From Dehalococcoidia bacterium (lineage in GTDB: Bacteria > Chloroflexota > Dehalococcoidia > UBA2979): 37,386 bases of DNA. The notes below the pieces were generated by a model that saw only the letters and a program-made list of their open reading frames with translations, did no database searches and was not told the origin of the DNA. The stretch is from assembly GCA_004297315.1 (NCBI GenBank), contig SCTU01000205.1, forward strand, positions 1 to 37,386, read 5' to 3'. Below, one piece after another: positions 6,739 to 33,325 of the stretch (within the stretch, counting starts at the first letter, position 1; each line of letters starts with the position of its first letter). A program made the translations under genes and the position numbers.

Positions 6739-7806
6739 TCAGGCGCTTCGGTTCCAGGCCAGCGAGAGCGTCATCGCGGCGAGGGCCAGTAGTGCGCCTG
6801 CTGCGGCGAACCCGAAGCTGATTTCAACATGCCGCTTCTGGAGCACGAACTCCTTCGGGAGATCGCGGAAGACCCCGACGAGTTGTTCCGCGTCTTCCGC
6901 ACGGTGATACGTGCCGCCGGTGAGGTCTGCGATTGACTGCAACGTCCTCTCGTCGATCCGGAGGATCGACCGCGGCGGACCGTCGGCGCCGTTGCGTCCG
7001 CTGCCCGGGCCTCCGAACTGGCCTCCGAAGGCGTCGCTCCCCAACTGCGCGCGCGAGCAGGAGAGCGGCGCGGGCGTGGTGGTGCCGAATCCGACCGAGT
7101 AGACACGGAGGTGCCGGTCGGCCGCCTCCTGCGCGGCCCTGAGCGGCGCGACGCCCTGCGTCGTCGCACCGTCAGTGAGCAGCACGACAATGTCCGGCTC
7201 GTAGGCACCCTGGGGCAACGCAGGGAGAGACGCCAGACCGAGGTCGTCGATGCGCGGCACATTCGGGTTGACGCTCGCAATCGCGTCGACGGAGCGCAGT
7301 AGCGCCGTGCCGATGGCGGTGCCCCGTCCGGCCTTGAGGCCGTCGATCGCCTCGATAAGCGCCTGACGGTCGGTCGTGGGCGGGACGAGGAGTTGCGCGC
7401 CACCCGAGAACGCGACGATGCCGATACGCGTCCCCTGCGGCTGGTCCGCGACGAACGTACGGGCCACCTCCTGCGCCACAGCCAGGCGGTTCGGGGCGAC
7501 GTCGGTCGAGCACATGGAGCGCGACACGTCGAGCGCAAGGATGATCGTGGTGCGGCTGGTCGGCACCATGACCACCGCCTGCGGGCGTGCCGCGGCCACA
7601 CCGAGGCTCAACAACGAGAGCAGGAGGAGCGCGAACGGCACCCATCTCCGCCAGCGGGTGCGTTTCGGCAGCGCCTCCCGCACCAGCAGGAGGCTCGCGT
7701 AGCGCACCGCAAAGCGGCGGCGACGACGGAGCATCAGGAGGTAGAACGCCACCAGCAGGGGCGCCAGCAGGGCCAGTGACAGCGCGTATGGCCACTCGAA
7801 GGTCAT
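6739..7806 (-). CDS. VWA domain membrane protein (BatB-like)
   Basis: ORF 6739-7830. I prefer the ATG at 7806 (MTFEWPYALSLALLAPLL), with GGGAGGG upstream and 2 nt after the preceding stop. It has N-terminal TM helices, the MIDAS motif LALDVSRSM, and a C-terminal TM helix. Confidence 0.85.
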   Translation of the reverse strand: MTFEWPYALSLALLAPLLVAFYLLMLRRRRRFAVRYASLLLVREALPKRTRWRRWVPFALLLLSLLSLGVAAARPQAVVMVPTSRTTIILALDVSRSMCSTDVAPNRLAVAQEVARTFVADQPQGTRIGIVAFSGGAQLLVPPTTDRQALIEAIDGLKAGRGTAIGTALLRSVDAIASVNPNVPRIDDLGLASLPALPQGAYEPDIVVLLTDGATTQGVAPLRAAQEAADRHLRVYSVGFGTTTPAPLSCSRAQLGSDAFGGQFGGPGSGRNGADGPPRSILRIDERTLQSIADLTGGTYHRAEDAEQLVGVFRDLPKEFVLQKRHVEISFGFAAAGALLALAAMTLSLAWNRSA

Positions 7807-7808
7807 GC

Positions 7809-8798
7809 CTATGGCACCCTCCCGAACCACTGGACCGTCAACATCGAACCCACGACCAGCAACAGCATGGCAACCCCCGCGAACACCGAGGTGACTTCGG
7901 TGGCCTCTCCACTCGTCGTGAGCTTGAGGTCGATCCTCTTGTAGGTGTCCACGAGCTGTTCTTCGTCCTCGGCACGGAGATAGACGCCGTCGGTCGCGTC
8001 CGCGATCTCCTTCAGAAGCGGCTCGTTCAATGCCGTCGCGATCTGATAGCCGTCCACCGTCAGGATCGCGCCCTCCGGCCGTCCGAGGCCGATCGGGAAC
8101 ACGCGGACGCCGGCATTGGCTGCGACCTCCGCCACGTCGAGCGGGTTGACCCGCGACGTGTGCTCGCCGTCGGACAGCATGACGATCACGGCAGAACCGA
8201 AATATCCGATGTCGAGCGAGAGCAGGTCTTCCTCGGATACGCCTTCGGGGATCGTGAGCGCCTTCCCCGCGATCGCGCCGAGCGACGCGAACATCCCCTC
8301 ACTCAGCGAGGTCCCGCCCTGGACGGAGAGCCGGTCGATCGCGGTCAGGACGTCTTGCTGCACGTCGGTCGGTTGGAGCATGACGAACGCGTTGTCGCTG
8401 AAGGCGACAACGCCGATCTTCACCGTGGACGGCTGCTTGCGGACAAACGCGGTCGCCGCCTGCTTCGCGGCCTCCATCCGTGACGGCTTGAGATCGTCCG
8501 CCTTCATGCTCGTCGAGACATCGAACGCGAGGATGACCGTGCCCTCGAGGTGGGGGATTGCCATGACGACGTTCGGACGCGCCAGCGACAGGAGGAGGAG
8601 TGCGATCGCGACGGCGAAGATGAGCGGCGGCACATGGCGACGGGACAGGAGGCGCCCCCGTGACCTCCCCTCGGTCACCTGCAACCCGAACTGTGCCGCG
8701 GCCGCGCTCCGGCGCCGGACGAGGTGCAGGTATGCCGTCACCAGGAGCGGCACGATCAACAGCGAAAGCAACATCGGAGGCCAGGCGAAGGAGATCAA
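7809..8798 (-). CDS. VWA domain membrane protein (BatA-like)
   Basis: The TTG start at 8798 overlaps the DUF58 stop (TTGA). The N-terminus is MISFAWPPMLLSLLIVPLL, the MIDAS motif is LAFDVSTSM, and there is a C-terminal TM helix. Confidence 0.85.
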   Translation of the reverse strand: MISFAWPPMLLSLLIVPLLVTAYLHLVRRRSAAAAQFGLQVTEGRSRGRLLSRRHVPPLIFAVAIALLLLSLARPNVVMAIPHLEGTVILAFDVSTSMKADDLKPSRMEAAKQAATAFVRKQPSTVKIGVVAFSDNAFVMLQPTDVQQDVLTAIDRLSVQGGTSLSEGMFASLGAIAGKALTIPEGVSEEDLLSLDIGYFGSAVIVMLSDGEHTSRVNPLDVAEVAANAGVRVFPIGLGRPEGAILTVDGYQIATALNEPLLKEIADATDGVYLRAEDEEQLVDTYKRIDLKLTTSGEATEVTSVFAGVAMLLLVVGSMLTVQWFGRVP

Positions 8799-9703
8799 CG
8801 GACTCTCCGCTTTCGTTGACCCGCCATCCGGACGAGTGCGGAGACCAGGTCGTCCTCGGTGGAGATGGCGAACGGGTCGACGCCTGCTCGCCGGAGGGTG
8901 GCGGCCAACCGCTCTTCGCGGGAGCGTGCCGCCTCCGCGAAGCGACGTCGCAAGACCGGGTCGCTTGAGTCCACAAGGACTTGCTCGCCGGTCTCAGAGT
9001 CCTCGAGCACCATGACACCAACGTCGGGGAACTCGACTTCGCGCGGGTCCCAGACCCGGATCGCGACCACGTCGTGGCGACGGCAGAGCAGTGACAGCGG
9101 ACGTTCCCAGCCCGGTTCGCTCAGAAAGTCCGAGACGAGGAAGACCATCGACCGACGCTTGATCGTGTTGAGCCCGGTCTGGATCAGCCCGTTCAAGTCG
9201 GTCGCCGTACGAGTACGTGCCGGGGGATTGAGCAGTTCACGCACCAGCCGCAGCACGTGCCGGCGTCCACCGCCGGGCGGGACGGTCCGCTCGACGACGT
9301 TGTTGTAGAGGATCGCCCCAACGCGGTTGCCACGGCGGGTGAACAGATGCGAGAGCGTCGTCACCAGGTCGACGAGCACGTGGCCTTTCGTGTGCTCATC
9401 CCGGCCGAACGCCATCGATGGCGACCGGTCGAGCAGCATCCACGCGGTCAGTTCGCGGTCCTCGAGGTACTCCCGGACATAGAGCGTGTGCATGCGCGCG
9501 GTGACGTTCCAGTCGATGTACCGCGCGTCATCCTCAGCCTGATACTCACGCAGGTCGGCGAAGTCCACACCCGCCCCGTAGAAGAGCGTGCGGTAGTCGC
9601 CCTGGAGCAAGCCGTCCAGCCGCCGGACGACCTGCCAGTCCAGCCGTCGGAGGACCTGCTCCGGCGTCGGCTCAGCGGCCGCTGGGGACGACATGCGCTC
9701 CAC
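8795..9703 (-). CDS. DUF58 domain protein (MoxR-operon partner)
   Basis: Motifs GDYRTLFYGAGVDFADLREYQAEDDARYIDWNVTAR are typical of DUF58. The start is either GTG 9703 or ATG 9694; both overlap the end of moxR. Confidence 0.85.
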   Translation of the reverse strand: MERMSSPAAAEPTPEQVLRRLDWQVVRRLDGLLQGDYRTLFYGAGVDFADLREYQAEDDARYIDWNVTARMHTLYVREYLEDRELTAWMLLDRSPSMAFGRDEHTKGHVLVDLVTTLSHLFTRRGNRVGAILYNNVVERTVPPGGGRRHVLRLVRELLNPPARTRTATDLNGLIQTGLNTIKRRSMVFLVSDFLSEPGWERPLSLLCRRHDVVAIRVWDPREVEFPDVGVMVLEDSETGEQVLVDSSDPVLRRRFAEAARSREERLAATLRRAGVDPFAISTEDDLVSALVRMAGQRKRRVR

Positions 9704-10694
9704 GCCTGCTTTCGATCAGGGATGCCTCAGGCAGCGGAATGCCCGGCAAGAGCTGCTCGATCACGCCATCAGCGCTGACGTTGGAGGCGAGCGCCTCGTA
9801 TGACAGCACGAGCCGGTGCCGGAGCACGTCGAACACGAGGTCGCGGACATCCTGTGGCAGCGCGTAGTCACGGCCGCGGATGAAGGCGAGGGCACGCCCT
9901 CCCAGGATCAGGTTGATCGACGCGCGCGGGCTGGCGCCGAACTCGATCAGGCGACGGAGGTCGCCCCGGCCTGCCGACTCCGGGTCACGCGTTGCCCGCG
10001 CCAGCCTGACCGCGTACTCCATCAATGCTGGGTCGACGTAGACAGCGTCTGCGGCCCGCTGGAACGCGAGCAACTGCTCGCCGTCGATGATCTGCTGCGT
10101 CGGCTCGAGCGAGCGTGTCATGCGCTCGACGATGACGAACTCCTCGGTCTGAGTGGGGTAGTCCACCAGGACCTTCAGCATGAAGCGGTCCTGCTGCGCC
10201 TCCGGGAGCGCGTACGTGCCCTCCGACTCGATCGGGTTCTGGGTCGCGAGGACGAGGAACGGGTTTGGCACGAGATGGGTCTCGCGGCCAATCGTTACGT
10301 GCCGTTCTTGCATCACTTCGAGCAGCGCGCTCTGCACCTTCGCCGGCGCGCGGTTGATCTCGTCCGCCAGCAGCAGGTTCGTGAACACCGGGCCCAGGGA
10401 GGTCTGGAACTCGCCCAGTTGCTGGTTGTAGATGCGGGTGCCCGTGAGGTCGGCGGGCACGAGGTCAGGTGTGAACTGCACCCGCCTGAAGTCGCCGCCG
10501 ACCGCCGCGGCCAACGTCTTGATCGCCAGCGTTTTGGCCAGGCCCGGCACGCCTTCGACCAGCACGTGGCCACGGGCAAGCAGGGCGACCAGAAGGCGTT
10601 CGAGGAGCGCGTCCTGCCCCACGATGACCTTCTTCATCTCGTACAGCACCTGCTCCATCGGCCGGTAGCTGTTCGACGGCGGTGCCACAGTCAT
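9672..10694 (-). CDS. MoxR-family AAA+ ATPase
   Basis: ORF 9672-10799. I prefer the ATG at 10694 (MTVAPPSNSYRPMEQV...), with GAGGAG upstream. Walker A is GVPGLAKT and Walker B is LLADEINRAP, followed by VLATQNPIE. Confidence 0.9.
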   Translation of the reverse strand: MTVAPPSNSYRPMEQVLYEMKKVIVGQDALLERLLVALLARGHVLVEGVPGLAKTLAIKTLAAAVGGDFRRVQFTPDLVPADLTGTRIYNQQLGEFQTSLGPVFTNLLLADEINRAPAKVQSALLEVMQERHVTIGRETHLVPNPFLVLATQNPIESEGTYALPEAQQDRFMLKVLVDYPTQTEEFVIVERMTRSLEPTQQIIDGEQLLAFQRAADAVYVDPALMEYAVRLARATRDPESAGRGDLRRLIEFGASPRASINLILGGRALAFIRGRDYALPQDVRDLVFDVLRHRLVLSYEALASNVSADGVIEQLLPGIPLPEASLIESRRGAHVVPSGR

Positions 10695-10713
10695 GACCTG
10701 CTCCTCTGATTCG

Positions 10714-11652
10714 TCATCGCTGCAGTCCGCCGGGGCCGCCTGTCCCGGCGAGCGGTACCGCGAACCCGATGCCGGTAAACGAGCGCTCGCTGGCGGCATT
10801 CGCGAGCGCGGTGACGATCCCGATGACCTGCCCGCGCCGGTTCAGGAGCGGACCGCCTGAGCTACCGGGGTTGACTGCGGCGTCGAACTGGATCAGGCCG
10901 GTCAGTTCGAGTGTGCCATGTCCGGGTGGGATCGTGCGGTTCAGGCCGGAGATCACCCCGGCACTGAGCGAGGCGGTGAGGCCAAGCGGGTTCCCGACCG
11001 CGTACGTCTCATCCCCCACCTGCATGCTCCCCGCGAGGACCGCGGGCACGATGAGTTCCGGCCCGGTGTCGGCGTGCAGGACGGCGAGGTCGTTCGGAAG
11101 GACATTGACGACTTCGGCCCTGGACTCGCTGCCGTCTGCGAACCTCACGGTGATAGTGCGTGCGCCGTCGATCACATGGTTCGCCGTGAGGATCATCCCG
11201 TCGGAGCGGACGATCACGCCGCTGCCGATCCCGGGACCGCGGTCGCCTTTCTCGTCGCCCTCCGTCTGGATGTAGACCAGCGATGGGAGGATAGTCTGGT
11301 ACACCTCGGTCGAATTCGGCGGGGCTTCCGCGGCACGCGCGATCGACGTCGCGACGGCCTCGCGGACGTCAGCCCGGGTGATCGGTGCTGGCTCAGGACG
11401 GAATCCTGCAAAGAGGAGGAGACCGGCCAGCGAGCCAAGGAGGCCGAGGGCGAGTGGCGCAAGCCATTTCCAGCCGATCCGGCGGCGTGCACCACGCTCA
11501 CCCGAATCGCTGCTGCGGCCTTGAGGAGTCACGGACGCGTGATGCGGCACGCTGCCGTGTCGCGTGGGCGATCGAGAGCTGCGTGATGCGGTAGAACACA
11601 CGAAAACGCCGGTGACATTGAGTCTCCGCTGCCGTGGTGGGACGGCGATCAT
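10714..11652 (-). CDS. Membrane-anchored trypsin-like serine protease (S1C/HtrA-like, no PDZ domain)
   Basis: Catalytic triad contexts are TANHVI, NDLAVL and GSSGGP. There is one TM segment (WLAPLALGLLGSLAGLLLFAGF). The stop lies 19 nt upstream of the moxR start. The true start is uncertain because the N-terminal tail is Arg/Ser-rich. Confidence 0.8.
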   Translation of the reverse strand: MIAVPPRQRRLNVTGVFVCSTASRSSRSPTRHGSVPHHASVTPQGRSSDSGERGARRRIGWKWLAPLALGLLGSLAGLLLFAGFRPEPAPITRADVREAVATSIARAAEAPPNSTEVYQTILPSLVYIQTEGDEKGDRGPGIGSGVIVRSDGMILTANHVIDGARTITVRFADGSESRAEVVNVLPNDLAVLHADTGPELIVPAVLAGSMQVGDETYAVGNPLGLTASLSAGVISGLNRTIPPGHGTLELTGLIQFDAAVNPGSSGGPLLNRRGQVIGIVTALANAASERSFTGIGFAVPLAGTGGPGGLQR

Positions 11653-13870: not shown

Positions 13871-15307
13871 TCACTCCTTCAGCCGGTTCGGTGGCGCGGC
13901 GGGAGACTGCTCCGGCTCATGCAGTGAGCCAAACGCCCGCTGGACGACTTCGGGGAGCGCGGGATGTGCGTAGATGGCGCCGGTGATCGCCTCGACTTTC
14001 GCGCGCATCCGCATCGCGAGCGCTGCCTCCTGGATCAGGACGGTGGCGTCCGTGCCGACGATGTGACAGCCGAGGATTTCCCGGGTCTTCGCATCGGCCA
14101 GCGCCTTCACGAATCCGTCATGGTCCTCGACTGCCGCGCCAAAGGCCGTGTCGTCGTACCTGTACTCGCTCACCAGGTACGGCCGCCCTCGCTCGCGGGC
14201 GGCGCGCTCAGTCAAGCCGACGCTGGCCACCTGCGGTGACGAGAAGATCGCCTGGGGCATCGCGTTGTAATCGACCGCGATTTTTTCGTCGGGGTACAGG
14301 ATGTTGTGCGCTGCATACGCCGCCTCGAGGTTGGCGCTGTGCTTCAGCAGGTACTTCCCGACGATGTCACCCAACGCCCACACTCCAGGCACGTTCGTCT
14401 CGAGGTATTCGTCCGTGCGCACGAAGCCTTGGGCGTCGAGGGCGACGCCGCCGCGGTCCGTTGCGAGCACGTCGGTATTGGGCACGCGGCCCAACGCCAC
14501 CAGCAGCGCCTCCGCTGACAGGGTGTGATCGCCGTCGGGGCTGGAGACCTCGACCGCCACACTGTTCCCGTCGCGGCGGACGGAGCGCACGGCGCTATCG
14601 GTGAGCACGCGAACACGCCGCGAGTACACCTCAGTCAGCCGGTCTCCGACCGCGTCGTCCTCGCGGGACAGGAGGCGGTGGCCGCGCTGGACGACCGTGA
14701 CTTCCGTGCCGAGCGTGCCGAAAAAATGCGCGAACTCGACCGCCGTTGCACCACCGCCCAGCACAACCATTGAGCGCGGCTGACGCTCCAGGCGCATGGC
14801 ATCGTCCGAGGTGAGATAAGGCACCCCTGCCAAGCCCGGTATCTCCGGCACCTGGGGCCGGCTCCCGGCCGCGATGACGATGGTCTCGGCGTGGATGGTG
14901 GAATCGCCGACGGTGAGCACCTTCTTGTCGATGAACCGCGCGGCGTCCTTGAACACCGTGACATTTGGCGACTGACGGTTGCCCTGTTCGATCGCGCGGG
15001 CGTCGGTGTCCACGCTTTCGGAGACGCGCCGCACCATCGTCTCCCAGTCGATCCCACGGACTTGCACATCGATCCCAAAGTGGTGTGCACCGCGGATCTG
15101 CTCCATGAGGTCGGCGCTGTGGATCAGCATCTTGGACGGGATGCACCCGCGGTTGAGGCACGTGCCCCCGAAGGGTCCGACATCGATCACCGCGACGCGC
15201 CGCCCGTGATCGACGGCGGCCGACACCTCAAGTCCGGAACCTGAGCCCACAACGATTATGTCGAATTCTTGCAAGGCCCCTCCCAGACTGATGAATGGCG
15301 CCGGCAC
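13871..15307 (-). CDS. Class-I FAD-dependent pyridine nucleotide-disulfide oxidoreductase (dihydrolipoyl dehydrogenase / mycothione-glutathione reductase family)
   Basis: FAD fold IIVVGSGSG, redox-active disulfide GGTCLNRGCIPSK, NAD fold VLGGGATAVEFA, and C-terminal dimerisation His (YAHPALPE). The start is either GTG 15307 or TTG 15274 (MQEFDIIVVG, with GGGAGGGG just upstream). Substrate is not assignable. Confidence 0.8.
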   Translation of the reverse strand: MPAPFISLGGALQEFDIIVVGSGSGLEVSAAVDHGRRVAVIDVGPFGGTCLNRGCIPSKMLIHSADLMEQIRGAHHFGIDVQVRGIDWETMVRRVSESVDTDARAIEQGNRQSPNVTVFKDAARFIDKKVLTVGDSTIHAETIVIAAGSRPQVPEIPGLAGVPYLTSDDAMRLERQPRSMVVLGGGATAVEFAHFFGTLGTEVTVVQRGHRLLSREDDAVGDRLTEVYSRRVRVLTDSAVRSVRRDGNSVAVEVSSPDGDHTLSAEALLVALGRVPNTDVLATDRGGVALDAQGFVRTDEYLETNVPGVWALGDIVGKYLLKHSANLEAAYAAHNILYPDEKIAVDYNAMPQAIFSSPQVASVGLTERAARERGRPYLVSEYRYDDTAFGAAVEDHDGFVKALADAKTREILGCHIVGTDATVLIQEAALAMRMRAKVEAITGAIYAHPALPEVVQRAFGSLHEPEQSPAAPPNRLKE

Positions 15308-15310
15308 ACG

Positions 15311-15337
15311 GATGCCCCGGTCAGATACCGGGGCATC
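15311..15337 (-). terminator. Perfect 10-bp stem / 7-nt loop hairpin downstream of the small zinc-finger ORF
   Basis: GATGCCCCGG-tcagata-CCGGGGCATC, 21 nt after the stop at 15358 on the minus strand. No U-tract follows. It also lies just upstream of the reductase gene, so it could act as an attenuator rather than a full terminator. Confidence 0.4.
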
Positions 15338-15357
15338 CGTGCATGAGCCGCCTGCGG

Positions 15358-15453
15358 TTACTGCTCCCGGTGCTGCTCGCGGGTGTGCTTCTGCAACTCC
15401 TCCTGCGACGGGAACGTCCCTTCACATCTCTGGCACTTGTACTCGTCTGGCAT
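15358..15453 (-). CDS. 31-aa classical C2H2 zinc-finger protein (not in the ORF track)
   Basis: My translation is MPDEYKCQRCEGTFPSQEELQKHTREQHREQ*. AAGGAG lies 6 nt upstream of the ATG at 15453. It matches Y-x-C-x2-C-x3-F-x5-L-x2-H-x4-H exactly, and a strong hairpin follows. Confidence 0.6.
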   Translation of the reverse strand: MPDEYKCQRCEGTFPSQEELQKHTREQHREQ

Positions 15454-15628
15454 TCAGATCTCCTTCCATGCCGTAACTCCCGGTTTCCAAGGGAGCCTCA
15501 GAACCCCAGTGTCTCCGGCACGGTTGCGCCGCGAACGTGATCCACGTCACCCCCCGGCAAGCTGCCACAAAGTCGCAACGGGCACCGTCCTCCTGGTCAG
15601 ATGTCCGACCTCGGATCCTGGCCACTTC

Positions 15629-15644
15629 TGTGAGCTCGATCACG
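15629..15644. promoter_or_regulatory. CRP/FNR-type dyad TGTGA-N6-TCACG
   Basis: TGTGAGCTCGATCACG matches 9 of 10 bases of the TGTGA-N6-TCACA consensus. It lies 47 nt upstream of the crp-family GTG at 15691, in the divergent region shared with the small zinc-finger ORF. An extra TGTGA half-site is at 15648-15652. Confidence 0.4.
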
Positions 15645-15690
15645 TAGTGTGAAAGCCGCGCCTGTAGGCTCAGCACCGGAGGATGGCTCA

Positions 15691-16367
15691 GTGCATGACC
15701 AGGTGAAGCGCGCGCACCTCCGCGAGTCCGAGATCTTCAAGGACCTCACCACGCAAGAACTCCGTGAGGTCGAGACGATGTCGGCGATGACGACGTGCCA
15801 CCGCGGCCGGGTCTTCTTTGAGCCGGACCGTACTGGCGAAGTCCTCTTCATCCTAAGGTGGGGAGCGTCGCGCTCTACCGGATCACCGAGGACGGGCGGA
15901 AGCTTGTCACCGGTACCGTGCAGGCAGGGTCGATCTTCGGCGAGATGGCGATGCTGGGTCAGGCGATGGCTGATTCCTACGCCGAAGCGCTGGAGGACTG
16001 CACGCTCTGCGTCATGTCCCGCGAAGACGTCATCCGTCTCATCGGCCGCCATCCTTCGATCGCGGTGCGCATACTCGACCGCCTCGCAAGCCGGTTGCGG
16101 GAGGCGGAGGAACGCCTCGAAGACGTCGCCTACCGGCCGGTGCCTGCCCGCGTGGCGAATACCCTGCTGCGTCTCGAACAGCAGGGCGAGGTCCACCTAT
16201 CACACCAGGACCTGGCCGAGATCGACGGTACACACCGCGAGACCGTCACCCGGACCCTGAACCAGTTCCGCGCCGACGGCCTCGTCGACCTCGACCGCAT
16301 GGTCGTCCGCATTCGCGACCGGGCCGGACTCACCGCGATCGGCAACGAGACACGCGAGACCGCATAG
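15691..16367 (+). pseudogene. Crp/Fnr-family transcriptional regulator interrupted by a 1-nt frameshift near 15855-15863
   Basis: Frame 1 from GTG 15691 (GGAGGA 7 nt upstream) gives VHDQVKRAHLRESEIFKDLTTQELREVETMSAMTTCHRGRVFFEPDRTGEVLFIL. Frame 0 from 15858 gives GSVALYRITEDGRKLVTGTVQAGSIFGEMAMLG...SHQDLAEIDGTHRETVTRTLNQFRADGLV. Joined, these make about 225 aa, a normal Crp length. The junction is at the G-run CTAAGGTGGGGAGC. This may be a true pseudogene or an assembly error. Confidence 0.7.
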
Positions 16368-16566
16368 CACTCGCACATGCGCGGGGCGCCGCGGCACGGC
16401 GAAGTCCGCGACCGGCTGTTCTCGATGACTGCGACTGACCTCCCCAGGCAGGTGGTGCCCCCCGAGGTGATCGGCGTCACGGATGAGCCCGGAGCAGACT
16501 CGTACGGTCGGATCACGCCCCCCTGAGGGCGCGAATGGTGAACGAGCGCTGGAAGGGGATGACCAG

Positions 16567-16752
16567 ATGGCAGAACAGCATCGATGCGCGGCTTGCGCTG
16601 GTGTATTCGCGACGGCTGAGGCGCTGCAGGCTCATGCGAGCAGCGAGCATCCGAAGGTGCAACAGCTCTCTTGTGCCGCTTGCGGCGGCACCTTCGCCTC
16701 GCAAGAGGCGCTCCGTGCGCATGCGCGCGAATCGCACGTGGTGCGATCGTAG
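16567..16752 (+). CDS. 61-aa protein with two tandem classical C2H2 zinc fingers
   Basis: Track ORF 16483-16752. I prefer the ATG at 16567, with GGAAGGGGA upstream. The sequence is MAEQHRCAACAGVFATAEALQAHASSEHPKVQQLSCAACGGTFASQEALRAHARESHVVRS. Both fingers fit C-x2-C-x3-F-x5-L-x2-H-x4-H. Confidence 0.65.
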   Translation: MAEQHRCAACAGVFATAEALQAHASSEHPKVQQLSCAACGGTFASQEALRAHARESHVVRS

Positions 16753-16907
16753 GGAGGCGGGATCAGGGGAGGGCGGTACGTCCGGTCTTCCCTGATCGCC
16801 CCCCTCTCACGGGCGTACCCCGAGCCAAACGGCTCCGAACATGCCGCCGCATGTGTGGCCCAAGCGCCAACTGACGTGAGCAGCGGCAGAAGCGAGCCGA
16901 GGTGCCC

Positions 16908-28071: not shown

Positions 28072-29186
28072 CCGGCGCCTCCTTTGAATACGACCGCAGG
28101 GTCGAGGCTCGCGATCTGCCGGATCGGAAGCGCCGCGGAGAGCGCCGCAATCACCAGGGACACTCCAACGGCCTTGAACATTGACGGAGCGCTGATGGCG
28201 AGCGAGATATTCGGCAAGGCGATGGGCACCACCACCGTCAGCAACAGCGTAAGCACGAGCCCCAGCAGGAAACCGGTGACCACGATCGACAGGGCCTGGG
28301 CAACTACCGCGACGTACAGATGGACGTTCCCGGCACCGATGGCCTTCAGCATGCCGTGCTCCGCCCGGCGCGAGAACGTGGCGATGTAGACCGTGAGCGC
28401 CATCACGGCGAGGCCGATCATGAAGCCCACCAGGTTCATGATCGAGCTCACGTCCGTCATCATGTCGTTGACCAGCGCCCGCTCTGCGCGGGCGAAAGCA
28501 TCGCGTGTCTGCGCGGTGGTGCCGGGAGTACTTGCCTCCAGGCGGGCCGCGACCGCCTCAGGAGCGGCGCCAGGGGTGACCTTGACCAGCACATAGCTCA
28601 CCACGGGCGGCCCACCTCGCAACTGGGCGAAGTCCTCGAACGAGACGAATGCGATCGAGTTCGTGAAGTTCGCGGTGCCGCCCGCAAGGCCGCTGATTAT
28701 GAACTCGTGGCCAAGGACCTTCACCCGGTCACCAATCCCCACGCCCGCATCCTCCGCCACCACGCGGTCGATGATCGCCTCGCCCCGACCGGGGATGGAC
28801 TTGCCGGCTGCGATGCGCCAGGGCCCGCCCATCGTCGCGTCGGCGGGCAGTCCGATGATGTAGGCGGCGTGCCGCCCCTCGCCGACCTCGACCATGTTGG
28901 AGAGGTAGAGGATCGGTGTGACCGAGTCGACGTCCGGCAGCCCGCGCAACTCCTCCACGACGGCCGCGGGAAGCGTGGACGTCGCCATGTGCATGTTCCG
29001 CACGCCTGCTTGCGACACGAAGACATCCGCGCCCGACTCCCGCATATACGCGGTGAGACGGCGCTGCGCGCCCTCGACGATCGCGTCAAAGGAGAAGATC
29101 AAGGTGAACGCGAGAGCGACACCGCCGAGCGAAACGGCGAGACGCGCCTTGTTCTGGAGTAGATTGCGGAGCGCGTATCGGAGCAT
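28068..29186 (-). CDS. ABC transporter permease, FtsX/MacB-type (372 aa)
   Basis: N-terminus MLRYALRNLLQNKARLAVSLGGVALA, a large extracytoplasmic domain, and three C-terminal TM helices, typical of FtsX-family permeases. Confidence 0.85.
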   Translation of the reverse strand: MLRYALRNLLQNKARLAVSLGGVALAFTLIFSFDAIVEGAQRRLTAYMRESGADVFVSQAGVRNMHMATSTLPAAVVEELRGLPDVDSVTPILYLSNMVEVGEGRHAAYIIGLPADATMGGPWRIAAGKSIPGRGEAIIDRVVAEDAGVGIGDRVKVLGHEFIISGLAGGTANFTNSIAFVSFEDFAQLRGGPPVVSYVLVKVTPGAAPEAVAARLEASTPGTTAQTRDAFARAERALVNDMMTDVSSIMNLVGFMIGLAVMALTVYIATFSRRAEHGMLKAIGAGNVHLYVAVVAQALSIVVTGFLLGLVLTLLLTVVVPIALPNISLAISAPSMFKAVGVSLVIAALSAALPIRQIASLDPAVVFKGGAG

Positions 29187-29190
29187 CGCG

Positions 29191-30309
29191 TCAGCCTCGG
29201 AAGACGTCGGCGGGTGCCAGCCGCGCGATGAGCCACGCTGGCGCGATTGACGCGAGCACTGCGATCAGAAGGCCGCTCCCGAGACTGGCCGCCACCGTGG
29301 TCGCCTCGACGACTACGAGGAATTGCGGCCGAAGCGCCATGATCAACTGCCCCGCCCCGGCGGCAAGCAAGACGCCAAGTGCGGCCCCGACCAGGGTTGT
29401 GACCAGTGCCTGCGTCGCGACGAGCAGGTAGAGCGTCCTGTTCTCCGCGCCGATCGCCTTGAGCACGCCGTACTCGCGTCGCCGCTCCACTGCCGCCGTG
29501 TAGATCACCAGGCCGACGACCAGCGTGCCGACGAAGAAGGCAATCGTGACCATCAACAGGATCGGGGCGTTGAAGAGCTTCCCCATGAGCGCCTCGTCGT
29601 TGGCGATCATCTGCCTCTTCGACAACGAGTTCGTCCCGGGCACGTCGCGCAGCCGCCCGAGGAGCGCCACGTCCGATGACCCTCGAGCGGGCTCAACGAA
29701 CAGGAAGCTGGCTGTACCGGGAGACACCGACAAGAGGCCTTCGAGGGCGCCCTTCCGGACGAAGAGGTAGTCGACCACGAAGCTGCTGGTCCCGCGCGAG
29801 AGCCCGACGAGTGTGAACGTGCGTCCAAGGAGTGAGAAGCGGTCTCCGACGTGCATGCCGTGACGGCTGGCAAGGACCCGGTCAAAGACGGCTTCATCGT
29901 CCGCAGCCGGGACGCGCCCTTCGCTCAGAAACCACGGTCCGCCGCCGCGCTCTGTCTCATAGCCGATGAGGTACACAGGCTGCTTACGGCCGTGGAGGTC
30001 GAGGATGGCAAACTGCGCGAGGACCGGCGTTACGCGGGCGACGCCATCGATGCGCTGGACAGCCTCATCCGTCCCTGCGGGCAACAGTGAGGTGGTCGCG
30101 AGCAGGTTGCCCACACCCTGCTGAGCCACAACGATCGAGCCGGGCATATGTTCCTGGTAAAGGCCCACCTGGCGGTACATCCCGCCTCGCAGCCCGCTGA
30201 GCAGCACCACGAGCGTCACGGCGAGCGCGACGCCTGCCACACTCAGCCCCAGGCGGGTCCGATTCCGGAGCAGGTTCCGGCTCGCCACGAACAACGTGCG
30301 ACTCGTCAT
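29191..30309 (-). CDS. ABC transporter permease, FtsX/MacB-type (372 aa, paralog of the adjacent gene)
   Basis: N-terminus FVASRNLLRNRTRLGLSVAGVALA with the same architecture. GGAGG lies directly upstream of the ATG at 30309. Confidence 0.85.
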   Translation of the reverse strand: MTSRTLFVASRNLLRNRTRLGLSVAGVALAVTLVVLLSGLRGGMYRQVGLYQEHMPGSIVVAQQGVGNLLATTSLLPAGTDEAVQRIDGVARVTPVLAQFAILDLHGRKQPVYLIGYETERGGGPWFLSEGRVPAADDEAVFDRVLASRHGMHVGDRFSLLGRTFTLVGLSRGTSSFVVDYLFVRKGALEGLLSVSPGTASFLFVEPARGSSDVALLGRLRDVPGTNSLSKRQMIANDEALMGKLFNAPILLMVTIAFFVGTLVVGLVIYTAAVERRREYGVLKAIGAENRTLYLLVATQALVTTLVGAALGVLLAAGAGQLIMALRPQFLVVVEATTVAASLGSGLLIAVLASIAPAWLIARLAPADVFRG

Positions 30310-30318
30310 CCTCCTGAT

Positions 30319-30336
30319 ACTACAGCGTGAAGTAGG
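30319..30336. promoter_or_regulatory. Dyad ACTAC-N8-GTAGG (CTAC-N8-GTAG), candidate BlaI/CopY-family operator
   Basis: ACTACAGCGTGAAGTAGG lies 10 nt upstream of the SD/start of the FtsX-FtsX-ATPase operon, in the region divergent to the Met-rich protein gene. A degenerate copy (CTACTACGGTATGTCGTGG) is at 30456-30474. Confidence 0.45.
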
Positions 30337-30530
30337 TCACCACGGAATCTGGGGCGTTCGCCCCATCTGACGATGTGGCACAGGTAGGCGAACGTCCTCC
30401 TCTTCAAAGGACTTAGGCCCACGCATCAGCCGGTGACAGTGTGCGACGATGTCATCTACTACGGTATGTCGTGGCCTTGCCTCGACACCCGCGCCCTGTG
30501 GGCGCGCGTTCTGGCTGAAAGAGGTGACCC

Positions 30531-31177: not shown

Positions 31178-33325
31178 TCAGGCCACTTTCTTCCGCTTCA
31201 GTAGTGCGGAATTCACGATGACCGACAGCGAACTAAGGGCCATCGCGGCCGCCGCGATGATGGGGTTGAGCAGGCCGATTGCCGCGACGGGGATCGCTGC
31301 GCTGTTGTAGGCGAGCGCCCAGAACAGGTTCTGTTTGATCTTGAGCATCGTCGCGCGAGAGAGGCGAATGCTCGTCACGACGTCACGCACATCGTCCTTG
31401 ATCAGGATGATGCCGCCCGTCTCTTTGGCCACGTCCGACCCGGACCCGATGGCTATGCCGATGTCGGCGGTCGCGAGGGCGGGCGCGTCGTTCACGCCGT
31501 CCCCGACCATCGCGACGACCTCGCCCGTACGCTGCATCCCGCGGATGACCTCGGCCTTATCCGCCGGCAGGACCTCGGCGATGACACGCTCGATCCCGAG
31601 CTCCGCAGCGATCGCCTGCGCCGTCCGCGGGTTGTCGCCGCTGAGCATCACGATGCCGATCCGGTCCTGGCGCAGGGCGTCGATGGCTTCGCGCGCCTCG
31701 GGTTTGATCGTGTCGGCGACGGCGATGATACCCGCGAGTACGCCGTCGACCGCGAGTAGCATCGCAGTCTTGCCCTGCACCTCGAGGCCGGCCATGGTCT
31801 TCTCGGCCGCGGCGGGATCAATGCCCTCGCGGGTCAGCAGGCGCCGGTTCCCCATCAGGATCGCGTGGCCGTCGCCGCTCCCACGGATCCCGTGCCCCGC
31901 GATGGCCTCGAAGCCGGACACGGCGGGCACATCCAGCCCGCGGTGCGTCGCCGCCTGGACGATGGCGCGCGCGAGCGGATGCTCGGAGCCGGCCTCCACC
32001 GCAGCGGCGAAGCGGAGCAGGTCCTGCTCGGAGACGCCGGCCAGCGGCACGACGTCGGTCACGGCGGGTTCGCCTCGCGTCAAGGTGCCTGTCTTGTCGA
32101 ATACCACCGTGGTGATCTTCTGCGCGCGCTCGAGGATTTCGGCGCCCCGGATCAGGATCCCGGCGTCGGCGGCCTTGCCGACGCCGACCATCAGAGCCGC
32201 TGGGGTGGCAATGCCGAGCGCGCAAGGACAGGCGATGATCAGGACGGCGACAAAGGCGAGCAGCCCCTTCGGGAACTCACCGGCGATCCACCACCCGCCG
32301 AACGCCAGCACAGCGATGCCCACGACGGCGGGGACGAAATACTGCACCACCTGGTCAGCGAGGCGCTGCACCTGTGCCGTGCTCGACTGCGCCTCTTCGA
32401 CCAGGCGCACGATCTGCGCGAGCGCGGTGTCCGAGCCGATCCGCGTCGCCCGGACCCGCAGCATGCCGGTCTGGTTGAGCGTGCCGCCGATCACCGAGCC
32501 ACCCTCGGCCTTTTCGACAGGCATCGACTCACCGGTCAGCATCGACTCGTCGACGGCCGAACGCCCCTCGACGACCGTGGCGTCGGTCGCGATCTTCTCG
32601 CCCGGCCGCACGACGAGGACTTCGTCGACCATGATCGACTCTGCCGGGATCTCTACCTCGGCCCCGTCGCGGACGACGTGTGCCGTCGCCGGCCGCAGGT
32701 CCATCAGCTTTCGGACGGCCGCCGAGGAGCGCGTCTTGATGACCTCCTCCATGTACTTGCCAAGTAGCACGAAGGCGATGATCACCGCCGAGACTTCAAA
32801 GTAGACGTCTCGTTCCTCGATGGACACCGGCAGCACGCGCGGGAAGAACACCACAAAGACGCTATAGACGTACGCCGTCGTCGTGCCGAGGGCGATGAGG
32901 AAGTCCATGTTGATGTTGCGGGTCCGGATCGCCGTCCAACTGCCCTTGTAGAAGGACCAGCCGCCAATGAACTGGACGGGCGTGACGAGGATGAACAGCC
33001 AGCGGCCCCACGTGAACCATGGCAACGCCGGGATCGGCGCCCAGGTCACAATGGTCGCGCCGGCCGCGAGCGCGATGAAGGCGCCGGCTCGGAGGATGGC
33101 GATGGCGACCACGCCGGTCAGCGCGATCGTGACGCGCCTCCGCATCGCCTTGATCTCAGTCTCGGGCGATTCGAAGGTGCGCAGACAGGTCGGGCTGCAG
33201 AAGTAGTAGGTGCGGCCGTTGCGCTCGGCGGTGAGCGCCGTCGACTTCTCGATCACCATGCCGCAGATCGGATCTTTCGCCATCCCGCTCGCGGCAGGCG
33301 GTGACTGCACCGGCGAGATGGTCAT
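31178..33325 (-). CDS. copA: Copper-translocating P1B-type ATPase with an N-terminal YHS/TRASH domain
   Basis: Motifs [24 protein letters not shown] and GDGVNDAP. The N-terminus reads [36 protein letters not shown] (a YHS pattern). No GMxCxxC HMA motif is visible. Confidence 0.92.

Follow-up and report, generated by a model that had tools for sequence, protein, structure and literature searches.

The stretch of DNA analysed here, referred to as the window, comprises 37,386 bases (contig SCTU01000205.1, assembly GCA_004297315.1; G+C content 67.5%) from a high-GC soil bacterium of the Chloroflexota (Dehalococcoidia in the sense of NCBI and GTDB). Two very small open reading frames (ORFs) in this window, ZnF31 and ZnF61, lie on either side of a gene encoding a Crp-family regulator (crp), and ZnF31 is followed by a gene encoding a flavoprotein disulfide reductase. 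An earlier reading of the bare sequence, hereafter the original prediction, had proposed that the two ORFs contain three classical Cys2His2 (C2H2) zinc fingers of the eukaryotic kind. Both ORFs exist exactly as it described them, and both are predicted to encode free-standing classical zinc-finger mini-proteins.

A six-frame regular-expression scan of the 37,386 bases with the strict pattern phi-x-C-x2-C-x3-phi-x5-phi-x2-H-x3-5-H yielded exactly three matches, all of them fingers of ZnF31 or ZnF61, and 200 first-order Markov shuffles of the window yielded none, in agreement with the three fingers originally proposed. The looser pattern C-x2-4-C-x12-H-x3-5-H was found four times, against a shuffle mean of 0.3. 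The ligand spacing in all three fingers is C-x2-C-x12-H-x4-H, and ZnF31 shares 52% identity with finger 2 of ZnF61.

Searches with zf-C2H2 profiles, a check that the original prediction had suggested, were positive for one ORF and fell just short for the other. ZnF61 exceeded the Pfam gathering scores of zf-C2H2_4 (33.5 vs 27), zf-C2H2 (27.7 vs 25.2), and zf-C2H2_jaz (28.5 vs 22.6, through finger 1), whereas ZnF31 remained about 1 bit under that of zf-C2H2 (24.3 vs 25.2), with two further scores also just short (23.8 vs 25 and 23.9 vs 27). Against the PDB, the ZnF61 family profile matched CTCF and other tandem fingers, with E values down to 3e-11 and alignments covering both fingers and the linker, and the best sequence match of ZnF31 was the designed consensus finger 1MEY (6e-7). 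The AlphaFold2 (AF2) model of ZnF61 consists of two beta-beta-alpha units (strand-strand-helix in each finger; predicted local distance difference test score, pLDDT, 76.6), for which the top Foldseek matches were the fingers of CTCF and Tramtrack. The single-sequence AF2 model of ZnF31 is likewise a beta-beta-alpha unit (pLDDT 86.9) and superimposes on BCL11A and CTCF fingers with a root-mean-square deviation of 0.5-1.0 A and a TMq of about 0.8. All three fingers are thus assigned by pattern, profile, and predicted fold to the classical C2H2 type, with zinc coordination predicted, and not to the Ros/MucR type, because sequence, Pfam, PDB sequence matches, and modelled folds agree; the original prediction had made the same distinction.

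The Ros/MucR zinc finger is a larger globular domain of about 58 residues. Ros/MucR proteins resemble ZnF31 and ZnF61 in being bacterial and small and in their Cys2His2 coordination (predicted here), but they have the spacing C-x2-C-x9-H-x3-4-H and bind DNA. They are restricted to alphaproteobacteria (PMC7710501). The family ROS_MUCR was not among the Pfam matches at E <= 10 (for ZnF61, among the best 25 of 38 families). The features of the locus are collected in Table 1.

Table 1. Features at and around the two finger ORFs, in positions of the window
Feature	Position	Strand	Description
Flavoprotein disulfide reductase gene	13871..15274	-	Pfam Pyr_redox_2 and Pyr_redox_dim; downstream of ZnF31 on the same strand
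Hairpin between ZnF31 stop and reductase start	15306..15342	-	Perfect 16-bp GC-rich stem; -44.5 kcal/mol, z = -5.4
ZnF31	15358..15453	-	31-aa ORF with one classical C2H2 finger (predicted); sequence MPDEYKCQRCEGTFPSQEELQKHTREQHREQ
Shine-Dalgarno sequence of ZnF31	15459..15465	-	AAGGAGA, 5 nt 5' of the ATG (direct reading)
CRP-type palindrome	15537..15550		GTGATCCACGTCAC; in the spacer between the divergent crp and ZnF31, 84 nt 5' of the ZnF31 ATG
CRP-type palindrome	15630..15643	+	GTGAGCTCGATCAC; putative autoregulated crp promoter, 21 nt upstream of TAGGCT (15665-15670)
Crp-family regulator gene (crp)	15690..16367	+	Pfam cNMP_binding and HTH_Crp_2; 225 aa in sister assemblies
CRP-type palindrome	16467..16480	+	GTGATCGGCGTCAC; putative operator/activator site of ZnF61, present at all ZnF61 loci
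Putative -10 hexamer of ZnF61	16503..16508	+	TACGGT (TAnnnT); TACGGT, TAGGGT, or TAGTGT in relatives
Shine-Dalgarno-like sequence of ZnF61	16553..16559	+	AAGGGGA, 7 nt 5' of the ATG; AAGGAG/AGGGAG at the same place in relatives
ZnF61	16567..16752	+	61-aa ORF with two classical C2H2 fingers (predicted) and a 7-residue linker; sequence MAEQHRCAACAGVFATAEALQAHASSEHPKVQQLSCAACGGTFASQEALRAHARESHVVRS
Stem-loop directly 3' of ZnF61 stop	16756..16800	+	Stem of about 16 bp; -30.2 kcal/mol, z = -3.4

Relatives and transcription unit of ZnF61

A search of 5.8 billion protein clusters yielded four homologues of ZnF61 (59-61 aa, 72-82% identity), all from metagenome assemblies; with the variants added by cluster look-ups and a JGI scan, six further distinct proteins were obtained overall (70-82% identity where measured), exclusively from metagenomes. 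One of the contigs bears the label Dehalococcoidia_UBA2979. No relative was found in the GTDB species representatives (120 pattern matches, 0 confirmed) or in the viral contigs searched. The tblastn searches of plasmids and phages gave only marginal matches, to large genes annotated as 'C2H2-type zinc finger protein' and to archaeal-virus finger/HNH genes, and those of phage and archaeal-virus genomes likewise gave marginal matches (E 0.008-0.8). Scans with Rfam, PADLOC, PHROGs, and NCBIfam returned nothing meaningful.

Within the family, pairwise Nei-Gojobori dN/dS ratios range from 0.06 to 0.20 and dS from 0.26 to about 1.4, which indicates that the reading frame is under purifying selection and that the lineages are old. 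As judged by these comparisons, ZnF61 is a real, rare, and lineage-restricted gene. All homologues share the N-terminus MA(D/E)(E/Q)HRC, and the start is therefore placed at 16567 and not at an upstream ATG. An 89-aa version from that ATG was considered and rejected: the extension would span the CRP-type box and the -10 hexamer, and conservation begins at MA(D/E)(E/Q)H.

A profile search of 1.84 billion representatives gave 37,080 matches at E <= 1e-3, the top ones carrying 10-30 fingers. Among the best 150 of these, most are long multi-finger proteins and the only short ones are P0001 and P0004, so that the search, swamped by long proteins, gave no census of small bacterial fingers. These multi-finger matches would fit an origin of the ORFs by recent import from eukaryotes or by eukaryotic contamination of the assembly, as would the G+C content at third codon positions (GC3), which is 0.66-0.77 in the ZnF61 family ORFs (window, L001, L007, L008, L009, L101) and 0.77-0.89 in their neighbours. 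We consider a eukaryotic origin highly improbable: independent assemblies of many samples place the genes within ordinary bacterial contigs, where they are accompanied by bacterial Shine-Dalgarno (SD) sites, a CRP-type operator, and stem-loop terminators, and their composition is Ala-rich and high in GC. Moreover, dS between lineages is near saturation, pointing to long residence in this bacterial group, the linker is not TGEKP, and identity to eukaryotic proteins is roughly 25-35%. The low GC3 of the ZnF61 genes hints at atypical codon usage or at lateral mobility of the unit.

The surroundings of ZnF61 resemble a small bacterial transcription unit. The palindrome upstream of the ORF has the consensus GTGAyCnnCGTCAC in an alignment across lineages, and the spacer between it and the TAnnnT hexamer measures 21-22 nt in every lineage (22 in the window). 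In class II CRP-dependent promoters, the site lies about 41.5 bp upstream of the transcription start. If the hexamer is taken as the -10 element, the ZnF61 palindrome is centred at about -41.5, which corresponds to this geometry. Scans with the sigma-70 promoter consensus and with a U-tract terminator consensus gave no matches, and the promoter is therefore proposed from the TAnnnT hexamer and the conserved box. The SD sites that the original prediction had called good are found in front of both ORFs. It had also placed a perfect 10-bp hairpin after one of them; in fact each ORF is followed by a longer one (Table 1). The stem after the ZnF61 stop occurs at the same place in all five lineages and is likely a terminator without a U-tract.

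When related contigs were compared by BLASTN, the alignment was confined to positions 16467-16797 and, in most lineages, to 16500-16797; the aligned block runs from the -10 hexamer through the 5' leader and the ORF to the hairpin, and in L007 alone it also takes in the box. The flanking genes differ: in the window they are crp and a gene of the IclR family, one lineage has MerR and MerA genes together with a divergent gene for a 98-aa zinc-ribbon protein, and another has genes for a CDP-alcohol phosphatidyltransferase and a GRDB/PrdB-like protein. By sequence comparison, ZnF61 is a compact autonomous transcription unit that keeps its putative operator while its neighbours change. The bracketing of crp by finger ORFs, which had originally been read as a hint of a functional link, is accordingly not conserved: in relatives, ZnF61 lies near mer or unrelated genes, and the crp orthologues have no finger ORFs nearby.

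Some further observations concern these loci. At the mer-linked loci (L001-L006, L093, and L105-L107; for example, L001 1912-2615), ZnF61 is divergent from the 98-aa gene, which encodes a stand-alone zinc-ribbon protein similar to the ribbon at the N-terminus of radical-SAM Tes/TrsS enzymes; the zinc-ribbon gene has a second box, GTGATCATGATCAC, on its side, and the MerR and MerA genes are downstream. A 153-aa gene beside ZnF61 (L007/L101) was compared with a 153-aa gene beside crp orthologues and proved to be unrelated. In the window, a 49-aa ORF (16377-16526, plus strand) begins 10 nt past the crp stop, with a coding-like GC3 of 0.84, and its 3' end overlaps the CRP box and the -10 hexamer of ZnF61; no Pfam family matched it, and it lacks conservation at the other ZnF61 loci.

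The single-finger ORF ZnF31 and the adjacent reductase gene

Several properties of ZnF31 are those of a gene. An in-frame TGA stands directly before the ATG, the SD site lies at an ideal distance from it, and the G+C content by codon position (0.59/0.34/0.84) is like that of the bona fide genes of the window. Gene callers annotated the ORF in three near-identical assemblies, and it is present in NCBI nr. It is followed by a hairpin to which no equal in stability was found in 200 shuffles; no U-tract follows, and the structure is a putative terminator, attenuator, or stabiliser.

The original prediction had named conservation and purifying selection as a check on both ORFs; ZnF61 shows both, and ZnF31 lacks a homologue outside the same strain. 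The search of protein clusters described above returned for ZnF31 no homologue beyond identical same-strain copies, and an X-padded query returned itself only, no other protein having even short word matches to it. The sister assemblies, at 99.5-99.95% identity to the window, show no substitution within the ORF and are therefore uninformative on selection. None of 80 loci of reductase homologues and five loci of crp orthologues (77-91% identity) from other species contained a finger ORF, the site that corresponds to ZnF31 in the crp loci included. The adjoining box at 15537-15550 has no TAnnnT at 19-24 nt on either side and thus no class II geometry; it may be the counterpart of the distal second box at orthologous crp promoters.

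Together with Pfam scores just under the cut-offs, these absences count against our reading of ZnF31 and would be explained if it were non-functional, either an ORF that arose by chance or the decaying remnant of a finger duplication, with ZnF61 alone being real. We regard this as unlikely, though it is the most serious of the alternatives, since the strict motif did not arise in any of the 200 shuffles, the finger retains its four ligands and its two core hydrophobic residues, and the SD site, the stop just before the ATG, the codon-position GC, the confident single-sequence fold, and the very stable hairpin all speak for a gene. On the evidence of its sequence, ZnF31 is probably real and strain-specific, most likely as a one-finger paralogue.

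The reductase encoded downstream is similar to mycothione reductase and dihydrolipoyl dehydrogenase and has the active site CLNRGC (467/468 aa, with the start taken from the sister assemblies). It scored under every NCBIfam equivalog cut-off, the nearest being that of mycothione reductase (490 vs 501 bits). An identification as MerA was rejected, as the C-terminal Cys pair is absent and the score is below the MerA cut-off; true MerA genes occur solely in the loci of ZnF61 relatives. The closest genome relatives of the reductase come from one Chloroflexota metagenome-assembled genome (MAG; 65%) and then mostly from archaea (Nitrososphaeria, Thermoplasmatota, and Bathyarchaeia; 37-49%), and the gene shows a 3-nt indel at 15214 compared with two sister assemblies. 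Elsewhere on the minus strand of the window are a gene for a heavy-metal P-type ATPase with an N-terminal YHS domain (31178-33325) and a MoxR AAA+/DUF58/VWA (BatA-like) cluster beside genes for a trypsin-like protease and a PAS histidine kinase (6739-10799).

The Crp-family regulator and its putative binding sites

An alignment of 12 Crp orthologues, down to 51% identity, shows an invariant R-E-T-x-T-R recognition helix together with invariant Cys36 and C104-x-x-C107. This helix, of the form R-E-x-x-x-R, has the R180/E181/R185 pattern of CRP. Homologues of the window regulator come from MAGs of Chloroflexota or 'Dehalococcoidia'. In the window, the coding sequence is split by a deletion at 15854 into the overlapping ORFs 15649-16260 and 15858-16367.

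The window contains five copies of the motif GTGA-N6-TCAC, where 0.62 would be expected, three of them within 15537-16480. Of the other two, one (30327-30340) precedes the ATG of a MacB/FtsX-type ABC permease operon (29191-30309, minus strand) by 18 nt and has TAGTAT 5 nt after it, and one (28393-28406) lies inside the next permease gene. In each of the 14 related ZnF61 loci that were scanned, all boxes lay shortly before the ORF; in two lineages the box is accompanied by a second one, 56-59 nt farther upstream. In 80 unrelated loci, the frequency was 7 boxes per 739 kb.

At the trx3-crp promoters of four orthologue loci (L096-L099), a box is followed after 22-23 nt by TAGGCT, TACGCT, or TAAGCT. 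The same architecture, that is, a box, 21-23 nt, and TAnnnT in the direction of the downstream gene, is thus found at the window crp, at the four orthologous trx3-crp promoters, and at every ZnF61 promoter; from base composition, a TAnnnT at this spacing would be expected by chance for a few percent of boxes. We propose that ZnF61 is a member of this Crp subfamily's regulon and is under its control, through predicted binding to the boxes. The functional link to crp suggested by the original prediction is in this form retained for ZnF61, whose boxes recur with class II-like spacing at crp promoters, and is weaker for ZnF31.

The crp orthologues with 77-91% identity (five loci) belong to thioredoxin-like/crp operons near Thioredoxin_3, Redoxin, DsbD_TM, and Glutaredoxin genes, and 12 of the 13 GTGA-N6-TCAC boxes in these loci are intergenic. 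These gene neighbourhoods suggest that the regulon handles thiol or redox stress, possibly metal stress. In loci L096-L100, crp is usually the second gene, after an 81-aa thioredoxin-like gene; the operon is preceded by two boxes of the type GTGATC-N2-GATCAC, and more boxes occur in adjacent intergenic regions. Compared with the class II CRP promoters known from E. coli CRP and actinobacterial CRP/GlxR, the system shares the GTGA-N6-TCAC motif, its predicted position at about -41.5 relative to the inferred start, and the R-E-x-x-x-R helix; it differs in half-sites extended to GTGATC/GATCAC and in a Chloroflexota subfamily of regulators with an invariant Cys and CxxC.

Possible roles of the finger proteins

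The original prediction had considered binding of DNA, RNA, or protein, and the residues of the fingers make DNA binding in the eukaryotic manner unlikely. Members of the family have isoelectric points (pI) of 5.5-7.0 and net charges of -0.1 to -3.1. Read directly, helix positions -1, 2, 3, and 6 are T, E, A, A in finger 1 of ZnF61, S, E, A, A in finger 2, and S, E, E, K in ZnF31. The linker of ZnF61 (PKVQQLS or QKAQQFS) has the canonical length and is not TGEKP, so that these proteins lack the marks of Krueppel-type DNA reading. With an acidic to neutral charge and small or acidic contact residues, eukaryote-style DNA reading is probably absent.

ZnF61, and perhaps ZnF31, could nevertheless be nucleic-acid-binding regulators, such as miniature transcription factors, nucleoid proteins, or RNA-binding proteins, modelled on two-finger domains (Tramtrack, ADR1), AFV1p06, or JAZ-type fingers that bind double-stranded RNA. 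The fold family is overwhelmingly nucleic-acid binding, DNA-bound fingers are the best matches in sequence and structure, with 7 residues the linker is as long as the canonical one, finger 1 scores above the gathering threshold of zf-C2H2_jaz, and AFV1p06 is a small classical finger of the prokaryotic world that is able to bind DNA (PMC3541406). We nonetheless consider this improbable in view of the zero to negative net charge and low pI, of Thr/Ser, Glu, and Ala where Arg, Lys, His, Asn, or Gln would be expected, of the missing TGEKP linker and basic tails, and of an H-x4-H spacing that differs from the H-x5-H of JAZ fingers. Surface residues that are near-invariant across the ZnF61 family, for example S-Q-E-A-L-x-A-H-A-R-E, indicate a specific partner. 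A zinc-stabilised role in protein interaction, or in zinc or thiol buffering, is therefore favoured over sequence-specific DNA binding, and this is the least certain part of our interpretation.

In the explanation that we prefer, the adjacent Crp-family regulator, with its Cys and CxxC, would sense thiol or redox stress, possibly metal stress, and would activate ZnF61 in class II fashion, while expression of ZnF31, which precedes the disulfide reductase gene, would start in the spacer that separates it from the divergent crp. The finger proteins made under such stress would act as zinc-dependent protein-binding adaptors or as zinc/thiol buffers. To this explanation as a whole, comprising the mini-proteins, the ZnF61 unit, Crp control, and a stress-linked role other than DNA reading, we assign a probability of roughly 0.55, a joint figure that also covers the prediction of classical mini-proteins for both ORFs.

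Several observations, in addition to those given for ZnF31, weigh against it. The transcription start of ZnF61 is an assumption made from the TAnnnT hexamer, and the stem after the ORF shows single-sided changes only, with no double compensatory change. The gene callers used on the sister assemblies missed ZnF61 and called the 49-aa ORF of the overlapping region instead. In relatives, ZnF61 adjoins neither thiol-redox genes nor crp, which leaves the box to carry the functional assignment, and the stress signal of the regulon is read solely from gene neighbourhoods. The crp gene of the window is frameshifted by a 1-nt deletion (a missing T) at 15854 relative to three near-identical assemblies (L010-L012), in which it is intact; the frameshift could be a sequencing or assembly error or mark a genuine pseudogene. 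Finally, in the widespread mer-linked lineage (P0004/P0275), C-A-A-C-G-G of finger 2 is replaced by C-A-A-D-G, a Cys-to-Asp change plus a one-residue deletion that keeps the frame, and the resulting CxxD weakens any model that needs a CxxC dithiol in this finger.

The last observation bears on an otherwise attractive sub-model, the proposal that the fingers are thiol redox switches, in which oxidation of CxxC would free zinc, unfold the peptide, and signal or buffer disulfide stress within the Crp regulon. The zinc-thiolate switches RsrA and Hsp33 provide the analogy. Each finger has a CxxC pair, the Crp whose putative regulon includes ZnF61 is itself Cys-bearing, boxes also accompany its thioredoxin-like, redoxin, DsbD, and glutaredoxin neighbours, the disulfide reductase gene is directly downstream of ZnF31, and in one lineage ZnF61 is divergent from a small zinc-ribbon gene with its own box. 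The lineage with Asp for the second Cys of finger 2 nevertheless evolves with a dN/dS of about 0.2, the relatives of ZnF61 show no conserved adjacency to redox genes, and the model is purely inferential; it has in our opinion a low probability, comparable to that of nucleic-acid binding. A broader proposal, which we advance as speculative and rather doubtful, is that the free-standing fingers are a rare indigenous invention or inheritance of bacteria and serve in Chloroflexota as stress-induced effectors (zinc/thiol buffers, redox switches, or protein adaptors), not as DNA readers, in the thiol-stress regulon of a Cys-bearing CRP-family regulator.

With the classical fingers of eukaryotes (CTCF, Tramtrack, 1MEY), ZnF31 and ZnF61 share C-x2-C-x12-H-x4-H, the core Phe and Leu, the predicted beta-beta-alpha fold, and the 7-residue spacing. 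They differ in being bacterial, in consisting of one or two stand-alone fingers with no other domain and a non-TGEKP linker, in their acidic to neutral charge with Thr/Ser, Glu, and Ala at base-contacting positions, and in a putative CRP-type bacterial promoter. Another group of small proteins, the haloarchaeal C(P)XCG proteins, are Cys4 zinc-ribbon types. Those of Haloferax volcanii are likewise stand-alone zinc fingers of less than 70 aa (PMC11241148, PMC6562870), have paired C(P)XCG motifs as their defining feature (PMC11241148), and are linked to stress adaptation, a role that for ZnF31 and ZnF61 is inferred. The proteins described here have a single CxxC and two His per finger in the classical spacing, and thus fall outside the C(P)XCG definition.

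A genuine eukaryote-type finger fold outside eukaryotes is known from AFV1p06 and related small C2H2 proteins of crenarchaeal viruses (PMC3541406); unlike ZnF31 and ZnF61, AFV1p06 is viral/archaeal, has an extra N-terminal region, and binds DNA. RefSeq holds some large bacterial and archaeal 'C2H2-type zinc finger proteins', the annotated bacterial examples being mostly large and multi-domain, and the presence of the fold in prokaryotes is therefore not new. In the literature searched, free-standing mini-proteins of the classical finger type were not reported from bacteria or Chloroflexota.

Classical C2H2 fingers are the commonest DNA-binding module of eukaryotes. The study of AFV1p06, which found no bacterial homologues, describes classical fingers as practically absent from bacteria (PMC3541406). 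What is new here is the predicted occurrence of the classical fold as complete proteins of 31 and 61 residues within an ordinary bacterial circuit with a CRP-type operator, SD sites, and stem-loop terminators, one of the two mini-proteins, ZnF61, showing clear purifying selection. Provided that they fold and bind zinc, the two would rank with the smallest classical-finger proteins in nature, be handy models for folding and metal selectivity, and represent a use of the classical fold without its usual DNA-reading surface. Should the speculative view of indigenous stress effectors be true, it would define a new functional class for a bacterial classical finger and provide a natural minimal finger (31 aa) relevant to the origin of the eukaryotic fold. 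The Crp subfamily, with its invariant CxxC, its GTGATC-N2-GATCAC boxes, and its redox neighbours, is a candidate thiol-stress regulator of uncultured Dehalococcoidia-type Chloroflexota.

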